This document shows, piece by piece, positions 20,246 to 21,003 of a stretch of 64,000 bases of DNA. Source of the DNA: an uncultured archaeon (GTDB lineage Archaea; Iainarchaeota; Iainarchaeia; Iainarchaeales; GCA-2688035); contig CAYHBD010000030.1 in assembly GCA_964354805.1 (NCBI GenBank), positions 6,800-70,799 on the forward strand, written 5' to 3'. Each line of letters begins with the position of its first letter. Position 1 is the first letter of the stretch. Position numbers and translations under genes: made by a program. The notes beneath the pieces are model-generated. The model was not told the DNA's origin and did not search any database. It saw only the letters and a program-made list of their open reading frames with translations.

Positions 20246-20336
20246 TGCTTCCTATAGCCCTGCAGCAATTTATTATAAATTTTCCCTCACCCCATATTAT
20301 TATCCATGGACCCATAGCCTAGTGGATAGGGCAACT

Positions 20337-20370
20337 AAAGAGGTGAGTTTTTCAATTCTCTCTTTTGCAA
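20337..20370 (+). other. tRNA-Arg intron 1 (34 nt) at non-canonical position 29/30
   Basis: hBHBh' motif: outer helix AGG/CCT, central helix GCAA/TTGC, 3-nt bulges CTA and AAG, inner helix AAGAG/CTCTT. Confidence 0.75.
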
Positions 20371-20378
20371 GCCTCCTA

Positions 20379-20444
20379 AAGCCTTTTCTTTAGAAAAGAA
20401 AAGGCTTGCGAAAAGAAATTTTTCGCTCTGCAAAAAACGGGGCT
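20379..20444 (+). other. tRNA-Arg intron 2 (66 nt) at canonical position 37/38, made of hairpin-repeat modules
   Basis: Central helix CTCC/GGGG with bulges TAA and CTA. It contains a perfect 11-bp hairpin GCCTTTTCTTT/AAAGAAAAGGC and the hairpin GCGAAAA/TTTTCGC. Confidence 0.8.
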
Positions 20445-20481
20445 AGCAGTAGGTCGTGGGTTCGATTCCCACTGGGTCCGT

Positions 20482-21003
20482 ATGGCTTGGTTAAAGCGTT
20501 TGAAGCACAAAGCCAAGAAAGCAGTTGTTGTGCTCAGGTCAAGGCCTCTGCTGAGAGACCCAACAGCTTTAGGAGTTCCAAGGGTTATTTGGAAAACGAA
20601 ATCGCATGGGAGAAGAATCATTTGGAAAAGCCCAGCAGAGCCAAGGGAAATTGAGGCAAGAAAGATTCTGCCAAAAATTGTGCCAAAAGAATGTGACACT
20701 TTTTATTTCAGGCTATCAAAGAGATACCCTTACAAAATTGGCGCAAAGCGCTGGGAGCAGTACTATGATTTGCCTTCAATGGAAGATGTTTTCCACGGTA
20801 GAATGCACAGGCGAATGAGAAAACTTCTGCGGGAAAAGAGAATATCTTTCGAAAAACTGCTGAACATGTGCACTGAAGCGGAAGAGGAATTGCACAAAAT
20901 CCTAAGGGAACACAAAGATGAATTGAATCTTGACCTTGGTCCAGACCAATTAATGGTTGGCGTAAGAAACGGCAAATTGGACCTAATTTTGGTTGATGTA
21001 TAA
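20482..21003 (+). CDS. Hypothetical basic protein
   Basis: 173-aa ORF starting right after the tRNA. No recognisable motif, and the start is uncertain. Confidence 0.3.
   Translation: MAWLKRLKHKAKKAVVVLRSRPLLRDPTALGVPRVIWKTKSHGRRIIWKSPAEPREIEARKILPKIVPKECDTFYFRLSKRYPYKIGAKRWEQYYDLPSMEDVFHGRMHRRMRKLLREKRISFEKLLNMCTEAEEELHKILREHKDELNLDLGPDQLMVGVRNGKLDLILVDV

Follow-up and report, generated by a model that had tools for sequence, protein, structure and literature searches.

The locus at positions 20308-20480 (plus strand) of the stretch of DNA analysed here, 64,000 nt long and called the window below, was confirmed, as far as its sequence can tell, as a real gene for tRNA-Arg(CCU) lying in three pieces and interrupted by two protein-spliced introns of the bulge-helix-bulge (BHB) type. 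In the genome studied, G000, which belongs to an uncultivated DPANN archaeon of the order Iainarchaeales, the gene corresponds to G000:C30:27107-27279. Our reading is that it is functional, with both introns cut by the endonuclease EndA at their BHB motifs and the exons joined by the ligase RtcB, and we give this reading a probability of about 0.88. Joining 20308-20336, 20371-20378 and 20445-20480 (29, 8 and 36 nt) gave a 73-nt cloverleaf with 21 of 21 stem pairs. This is the molecule that the initial annotation had proposed, and all its coordinates were reproduced, in agreement with the orthologues and the covariation presented below. The elements of the gene are the following, where h, H and h' stand for the outer, central and inner helix of a BHB motif.

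20269-20280, plus strand: putative archaeal TATA-like box TTTATTATAAAT, about 35 nt 5' of the mature end, judged from the sequence.
20308-20336, plus strand: exon 1, tRNA positions 1-29, with the acceptor 5' strand, the D arm and the first 3 nt of the anticodon stem.
20337-20370, plus strand: intron 1, 34 nt, non-canonical position 29/30, strict hBHBh' motif.
20371-20378, plus strand: exon 2, GCCTCCTA, 8 nt, positions 30-37, with the last 2 nt of the anticodon-stem 5' strand, C32, U33, CCU and A37.
20379-20444, plus strand: intron 2, 66 nt, canonical position 37/38, hBH-type motif.
20445-20480, plus strand: exon 3, positions 38-73, with A38, the anticodon-stem 3' strand, the variable loop AGGTC, the T arm, the acceptor 3' strand and G73.

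The 173-nt span reads GGACCCATAGCCTAGTGGATAGGGCAACT, 34 nt of intron 1, GCCTCCTA, 66 nt of intron 2 and AGCAGTAGGTCGTGGGTTCGATTCCCACTGGGTCCG, and no CCA is encoded at its 3' end. The predicted junction words of the mature tRNA are GGGCAACU/GCCUCCUA/AGCAGUAGG, with GGGCAACT/GCCTCCTA at the predicted join of exons 1 and 2 and GCCTCCTA/AGCAGTAGG at that of exons 2 and 3. The putative identity features of a tRNA-Arg are present, namely the anticodon CCT, an A at position 20 in the D loop AGTGGATA and the discriminator G73. C35 and A20 of the D loop are the classic identity elements for arginyl-tRNA synthetase. A sequence near-identical to the candidate TATA-like box, AATTCTATTATAAATTTTCCCC, was found upstream of the orthologous intronless gene in the related genome G001.

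All ways of removing one to three BHB-bounded segments (central helix of 4 bp, outer helix of at least 2 bp) between the acceptor strands were enumerated, and the products were scored by their cloverleaf pairs and by seven conserved nucleotides. The three-exon structure alone took first place among 858 candidates, with all 21 pairs and all 7 conserved nucleotides, ahead of a runner-up with 20 pairs and 5 nucleotides. The raw locus was not called Arg by ARAGORN, which in its plain mode reported nothing there, and the spliced 73-mer was called tRNA-Arg(cct) with a faultless fold. Rfam gave no match at the raw locus at its gathering threshold, and at E values up to 10 it made no tRNA call there, returning chance miRNA-like matches on the hairpins and a T-arm fragment.

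Intron 1 is bounded by the following motif.

20328-20374, plus strand: BHB 1, with h formed by AGG (20328-20330) and CCT (20372-20374) and H by GCAA (20331-20334) and TTGC (20365-20368).
20335-20337 and 20369-20371, plus strand: bulges CTA and AAG of BHB 1, with predicted cuts CT/A and AA/G; h' runs from 20338 and to 20364.

All four pairs of H are formed, h is 3 bp long and h' has six contiguous pairs counted from the bulge, within an inner helix of about 11 bp overall, so that intron 1 has h and h' of at least 2 bp around a 3-4-3 core and is of the strict hBHBh' class. The position, helices and bulges given for this intron by the initial annotation were all found as described. When the intron was shuffled with its junctions held fixed, 1.7% of the products yielded a 4-bp central helix and 0.1% had an inner helix of at least 3 bp as well. 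No other copy of intron 1 was found in G000, in which only chance short matches occurred. A 25-nt match in the genome G005 was rejected as its source; it sits in apparently unrelated DNA.

Orthologues of the gene were located in related genomes, and the order fibrillarin, CarS-like gene, tRNA, helix-turn-helix (HTH) gene is common to G009, G011, G016 and G012. The G016 gene has no intron, and those of G009 and G011 have an intron at 37/38 only, of 22 nt in G009 and of about 70 nt, unrelated to intron 2, in G011. In all three, exon 2 is contiguous with exon 1, and both G009 and G011 read GGGCAACTGCCTCCTA, which is exactly the predicted join of exons 1 and 2 (ACT/GCC). Exon 1 shares 97% identity with the 5' part of the G009 gene, which lacks intron 1. 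In G012 both introns are present (35 and 15 nt), and identity is 96% over exon 1, intron 1 and exon 2. The exon junctions are thus confirmed by orthologues with no intron, with the 37/38 intron only and with both, and by the exact joins.

In G001, of the same genus as G012, the arrangement is reversed. Its CCU gene, beside the CarS-like gene, is intronless, and the 29/30 intron is found in its UCU gene together with an 18-nt intron 2, at a locus syntenic with the UCU gene of G000 (on contig C7); in G012 it is the CCU gene that holds the 29/30 intron. The two Arg loci of G001 are G001:C83:7217-7288 (minus strand) and G001:C84:39061-39133. A compensatory double change separates the central helix of the 29/30 intron in G001, GCGA/TCGC, from the GCAA/TTGC of G000. 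In its 5' half the G001 UCU gene is of the CCU type and in its T arm of the UCU type, a chimeric appearance that suggests gene conversion between Arg isoacceptor genes.

Inserts at 29/30 were searched for in 196 genomes of the order by BLAST with mature sequences and by a pattern search. Ten pattern matches that were not intron-bearing Arg tRNA genes were discarded, and the intron was found in seven genomes of four families, a lower bound given the strict pattern. These are G000, G012, G001 (UCU gene), G066 (family f28), G047 (family f26), and G090 and G070 (both family f2). The gene of G066 has the same three-exon layout with an 8-nt exon, its introns measuring 32 nt at 29/30 and 33 nt at 37/38; the 29/30 introns of G047, G090 and G070 are 32, 38 and 22 nt long. 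All seven spliced products were called tRNA-Arg by ARAGORN, and a BHB was present at the junctions of all seven (H with 4/4 pairs in six and 3/4 in one, h of 3 bp, h' of at least 5 bp).

For the covariation analysis the columns were set at fixed offsets from the junctions and not by pairing. Pairing was seen in 97.4% of the column cells; shuffles reached 79.8%, and slid registers no more than 56%. Both sides change in 8 of the 13 pairs of BHB 1, with H and h' covarying. On four of five measures the observed values were reached by none of 500 shuffles, and for further pair types by one of 500.

How the 29/30 intron came to be distributed in this way allows two histories. Sideways spread of a non-ancestral intron, between genomes and between Arg isoacceptor genes, through gene conversion or transposition, is a serious contender to which we give somewhat under even odds. 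It would account for the patchy occurrence (7/196 genomes in four families), for the presence of the intron in the CCU gene of one genome and in the UCU gene, at a different locus, of another genome of the same genus, and for the chimeric appearance of the G001 UCU gene. The introns of G000, G047 and G066, on the other hand, look related (GAGGTGA..GTTTTT, CTTGCAA), by eye only, which fits vertical descent with repeated loss as well; no donor was identified, and the counts from the strict search pattern are lower bounds.

Intron 2, at 37/38, agreed with its description in the initial annotation as having a central helix CTCC/GGGG, bulges TAA and CTA and little inner helix. H is formed by CTCC (20373-20376) and GGGG (20439-20442) with 4/4 pairs, the bulges are TAA (20377-20379) and CTA (20443-20445), and the predicted cuts are TA/A and CT/A. 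The outer helix of BHB 2 is the anticodon stem, which gives h a length of 5 bp after removal of intron 1. The strand facing the 5' bulge continues into an unpaired, A-rich linker, and what adjoins the bulge is a local hairpin of 12 bp, so that h' is zero. Within the intron two hairpins were recognised.

20379-20418, plus strand: repeat module, a 13-bp hairpin followed by the box GCGAAAAGAAA (20408-20418).
20408-20426, plus strand: second hairpin, 7 bp between 20408-20414 and 20420-20426 (GCGAAAA/TTTTCGC), loop GAAAT, in the minimum free energy (MFE) structure of RNAfold.

The perfect stem of the first hairpin (20379-20391 with 20395-20407, loop AGA) comprises 13 bp, reduced to 12 when the first A is counted with the bulge, and not the 11 bp reported initially. 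The accompanying statement that the hairpins belong to a family was right: at least 15 other tRNA genes of G000 have introns that begin with the hairpin and the G(C/G)GAAA(A)GAAA module, and the module has many matches across 41 genomes of the family and order. Several other module-bearing introns of G000 also have an h' of zero, which makes the shape of intron 2 a routine substrate for the enzyme of this organism. The 37/38 introns of the orthologues in G012, G009 and G066 are without the hairpin module, which suggests that it entered intron 2, or replaced it, recently.

Processing would begin with transcription of a precursor of about 173 nt plus a leader. EndA would then excise both introns at the BHB motifs and RtcB would ligate the exons. 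BHB 1 would borrow the D-stem 3' strand G24-A27 for its central helix and C31-U33 for its outer helix. In BHB 2, C32-C35 would pair with GGGG as the central helix and the anticodon stem, including G30-C31, would serve as the outer helix, with the 12-bp module hairpin in the place of the inner helix. Both motifs need C31-U33 and hence cannot form together, which points to sequential splicing with refolding. By cutting, ligating, refolding and cutting again, the 8-nt exon would stay covalently bound to a neighbouring exon; four simultaneous cuts would leave it held by two base pairs. The scheme assumes that the BHB conformer is captured by protein.

Folding of the precursor gave an MFE of −69.1 kcal/mol, compared with −64.1 kcal/mol when BHB 1 was enforced and −60.5 kcal/mol when BHB 2 was enforced. 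We consider it moderately probable that intron 1 is removed first, because in these nearest-neighbour models the BHB 1 conformer is the more stable by 3.6 kcal/mol and the BHB 2 helix rises after removal of intron 1. With intron 1 present, two of the four central pairs of BHB 2 have a probability of 0.2-0.5%; after its removal all four reach about 17%. The gene and its introns could also be as described with the canonical intron 2 leaving first or the order being free. This was seen in vitro for the pre-tRNA-Glu of Methanopyrus kandleri, where three different EndAs took the canonical intron first (PMC5829648), and BHB 2 can be combined with the central and inner helices of BHB 1 in a conformer of −60.5 kcal/mol. 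We regard it as rather unlikely here: while intron 1 is in place the outer helix of BHB 2 is reduced to 2 bp, and both the low probabilities of its central pairs and the energy difference in favour of BHB 1 speak against it, though weakly, as they are model-based.

The need for the gene was examined in the context of G000 (1.38 Mb, 49 contigs, 44% G+C, 88.5% complete). In 410 long open reading frames (ORFs), AGG encodes Arg more often than any other codon does; its frequency is 20.8 per 1000, and it makes up about half of the Arg codons. The other Arg tRNA genes found in G000 have the anticodons UCU, UCG and GCG, and no second CCU gene was found in the assembly. That the sole CCU gene found would serve the commonest Arg codon is a strong argument against a pseudogene. 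A dead tRNA-Arg gene, with two insertions of which one is a mobile hairpin repeat and with incidental BHB-like pairings, could be suspected from the dispersed module in intron 2 and from the silence of standard tRNA finders. We find it very improbable: the exons are intact with all 21 stem pairs, both insertions are placed so that 3-nt bulges and a 4-bp helix fall into register, intron 1 has been kept with compensatory changes over four families, and most other tRNA genes of G000 hold the same module at a spliceable position.

A different structure with one long intron, the poor 95-nt tRNA-Glu(ttc) model with an 80-nt intron that ARAGORN -i reported at the raw locus, was rejected as having next to no chance of being right, for its anticodon stem and long extra arm are mismatched, its junctions have 1/4 central-helix pairs and thus no BHB, a proper Glu(UUC) gene lies at C10:64296-64450, and it is refuted by the orthologues without intron 1, which read Arg(CCU).

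The splicing enzymes expected to act on the precursor are encoded in G000.

G000:C11:9474-9947, minus strand: EndA, about 169 aa from an internal ATG, with PF02778 and PF01974 (also L001 1474-2031).
G000:C9:56487-57794: RtcB, the ligase gene.

EndA scored 119 bits on TIGR00324 (cut-off 59.6). Its identity is 75-81% to proteins of metagenome-assembled genomes (MAGs) that carry the label Candidatus Iainarchaeum and 67% to the EndA of archaeon GW2011_AR10, which assigns G000 to the Iainarchaeales (DPANN). No second EndA-like ORF of beta or epsilon type was found in G000 by phmmer, by hmmsearch --max over all ORFs or with a beta-subunit model. Of 61 genomes sampled from the order, 54, single-contig assemblies among them, had one EndA match each above the Pfam cut-off. 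With phmmer the protein aligned without gaps to the alpha4 EndA of Methanocaldococcus jannaschii (1a79; query 7-169, chain 9-171). The 5-residue insertion of the ARMAN-2 enzyme (4fz2) is not in the G000 protein, and no broad-specificity insert (L1/CSL, L2/ASL, L3) relative to the alpha4 enzyme was seen in the alignment. A single gene in the range of 170-180 aa, with both domains and with neither a beta subunit nor a fused repeat, is what characterises the alpha4 type, and in these respects the EndA of G000 conforms to it.

Of the catalytic triad Tyr-His-Lys, Tyr and His are kept and Thr occupies the column of K156. The numbering Y115, H125 and K156 is that of a M. jannaschii reference sequence that agrees with the 1a79 alignment. 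Thr stands in this column in 21 of 21 aligned sequences of the Iainarchaeales group, preceded by R, K or H ([IL]-[RKH]-T). Lys is found there in the homologues of Halobacteriales and Marine Group IV and in every solved structure, the motif of M. jannaschii being S-V-R-K. The Tyr-His loop has the M. jannaschii length, reads PRGKKPG and is nearly invariant. These sequences suggest a possibly rearranged active site.

By the published rule, an alpha4 EndA needs a strict hBHBh' motif (PMC3239211), and cleavage of relaxed or ectopic introns is tied to (alpha-beta)2 or epsilon2 enzymes or to inserted loops (PMC3239211, PMC5829648). According to one of these two papers (PMC3239211, PMC5829648), L3-bearing alpha4 enzymes of DPANN accompany more disrupted tRNA genes. 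The initial annotation had expected a broad-specificity endonuclease and had proposed to inspect the subunit type. Inspection turned up one alpha-type gene of 169 aa with neither insert nor paralogue, an architecture that does not back the expectation. The non-canonical intron 1 is a strict hBHBh', and a relaxed-specificity enzyme is therefore not required by the published rule. Some tolerance on the part of the enzyme is nevertheless conceivable, as intron 2 and several other introns are without a formal inner helix.

Several observations weigh against a functional gene spliced as proposed. At 88.5% completeness, a second Arg(CCU) gene or a partner of EndA could be missing from the assembly. 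Intron 2, with its h' of zero, falls outside the strict hBHBh' class and belongs to the relaxed hBH class, and the rule for alpha4 enzymes speaks against its cleavage. The catalytic Lys is replaced by Thr. Neither BHB is the ground state of the naked RNA, in which the central helix of BHB 1 has a probability of about 5% and its outer helix of about 0.1%. The three pairs of that outer helix are invariant and thus neither backed nor contradicted by covariation. All of these are included in the estimate given at the outset.

As a more far-reaching and quite doubtful proposal, a single loop-less alpha-type EndA, its catalytic Lys changed to Thr, would handle the heavily interrupted tRNA set of the Iainarchaeales, with the 29/30 intron in four families and with introns in which a repeat hairpin takes the place of the inner helix. 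Its active site would be rearranged and its tolerance wider than the strict-BHB rule for alpha4 enzymes allows, and mutually exclusive BHBs would order splicing in a way that protects the 8-nt micro-exon. The substitute catalytic residue would perhaps be found in the invariant Lys-Lys of the Tyr-His loop or in the basic residue before Thr.

The tRNA gene is flanked on one side by the pair of fibrillarin and CTP_transf_1 (CarS-like) genes, and on the other by an unannotated ORF and then the HTH gene. A candidate ORF of 173 aa (20482-21003, plus strand), perhaps a gene co-transcribed with the tRNA, has its ATG one base past the tRNA 3' end; it gave no Pfam match, and no terminator-like site was found between the tRNA and the ORF.

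Further interrupted tRNA genes of G000, all outside the window, were noted. BHB enumeration in this genome covered 44 seeded spans and was noisy for class II tRNAs and for spans failing the BHB filter. The tRNA-Lys(UUU) gene at G000:C45:30-159 (minus strand) also has three exons, of 31, 8 and 35 nt, separated by a 33-nt strict-BHB intron at 30/31 (CACT/AGTG, bulges TG/A and AA/G) and an intron of about 22 nt at 37/38; the spliced 74-mer was called tRNA-Lys(ttt) by ARAGORN and the raw locus was miscalled Leu(caa) by ARAGORN -i. A tRNA-Phe(GAA) gene at G000:C18:1231-1338 (plus strand) has a single 34-nt D-loop intron (offset 19-53). The BHB of this intron is strict, with h of 3 and h' of 6 pairs, and once it is taken out 21/21 stem pairs form; the Rfam match of the gene is truncated and ARAGORN -i miscalled it Pro(agg). 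At G000:C9:80936-81082 (plus strand) lies a class II tRNA gene, probably Leu(UAA), with the anticodon stem CAGGA/TCCTG and the loop CTTAAGA. It has apparent introns near 31/32 (about 39 nt, helices GGCAG/CTGCC and AATTTTTT/AAAAAATT) and near 37/38 (about 23 nt), the junctions of which could not be placed consistently with a 3-4-3 BHB. Finally, an Ile(tat) call by ARAGORN at G000:C42:32258-32377 (minus strand) has a 48-nt intron with a C-box-like GTGATGA and without the hairpin module. The introns of euryarchaeal tRNA-Trp genes encode a C/D-box guide.

The gene matters in three respects. Standard annotation overlooks the one gene found that would read the most frequent Arg codon, which skews inferences on MAG completeness and codon reading in the Iainarchaeales. 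A strict non-canonical intron and a relaxed canonical one, together with a single insert-free alpha-type EndA, offer a natural test of the rule that links EndA architecture to intron type. With orthologues that have none, one or both introns, and with the UCU paralogue, the gene lends itself to a small-scale study of how tRNA introns are gained, lost and transferred.

Genes of this kind are not a surprise in themselves. Thermoproteales and other Crenarchaeota have tRNA genes with more than one intron, among them BHB introns at non-canonical positions (Sugahara et al. 2008, 2009, reviewed in PMC4090602), position 29/30 is a listed non-canonical site (PMC4090602), and the gene studied here has in common with the crenarchaeal ones that one to three protein-spliced introns occur per gene, non-canonical beside canonical, with BHBs formed through alternative pairing of the precursor. 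It differs in its host, a member of the DPANN Iainarchaeales and not of TACK, and in that only one alpha-type EndA was found in the genome, compared with the (alpha-beta)2 enzyme with a Crenarchaea-specific loop of the Crenarchaeota. The occurrence in some DPANN lineages that the initial annotation had mentioned fits this host. Our literature search turned up nothing published on the tRNA introns of Iainarchaeota or Diapherotrites, which does not prove that no such paper exists.

Among DPANN a close comparison is ARMAN-2 (Micrarchaeota), in which many tRNA genes are likewise interrupted, some of them twice and with strict hBHBh' motifs at non-canonical sites, and in which the disrupted genes escape standard tools (PMC3239211). 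Its epsilon2 EndA is a three-unit protein of 395 aa with an extra Lys-containing insertion (PMC3239211), unlike the 169-aa protein without insertion found here. The pre-tRNA-Glu(UUC) of M. kandleri shares with our precursor the two introns, an enzyme without a specific loop and the question of removal order (PMC5829648). There, the non-canonical intron in the D arm is a relaxed HBh' and the enzyme is (alpha-beta)2; in our gene it is the canonical intron that is relaxed, the non-canonical one being strict. A discontinuity at 29/30 resolved by a BHB is also known from the split tRNA-Ala of Caldivirga maquilingensis (PMC4090602), the halves of which are trans-spliced, unlike the one contiguous gene described here.

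Large-scale transposition of tRNA introns has been described in Thermoproteales (Fujishima et al. 2010, cited in PMC4090602). As in that case, introns of different tRNA genes in G000 share one sequence family, the hairpin with its GCGAAAAGAAA module, to which intron 2 belongs and, in contrast, intron 1 does not. With multi-intron tRNA genes and the 29/30 site already textbook knowledge for Crenarchaeota and known for some DPANN, what is added is modest: a 29/30 intron over four families, its presence in the paralogous UCU gene, and a plain alpha-type EndA with Thr.

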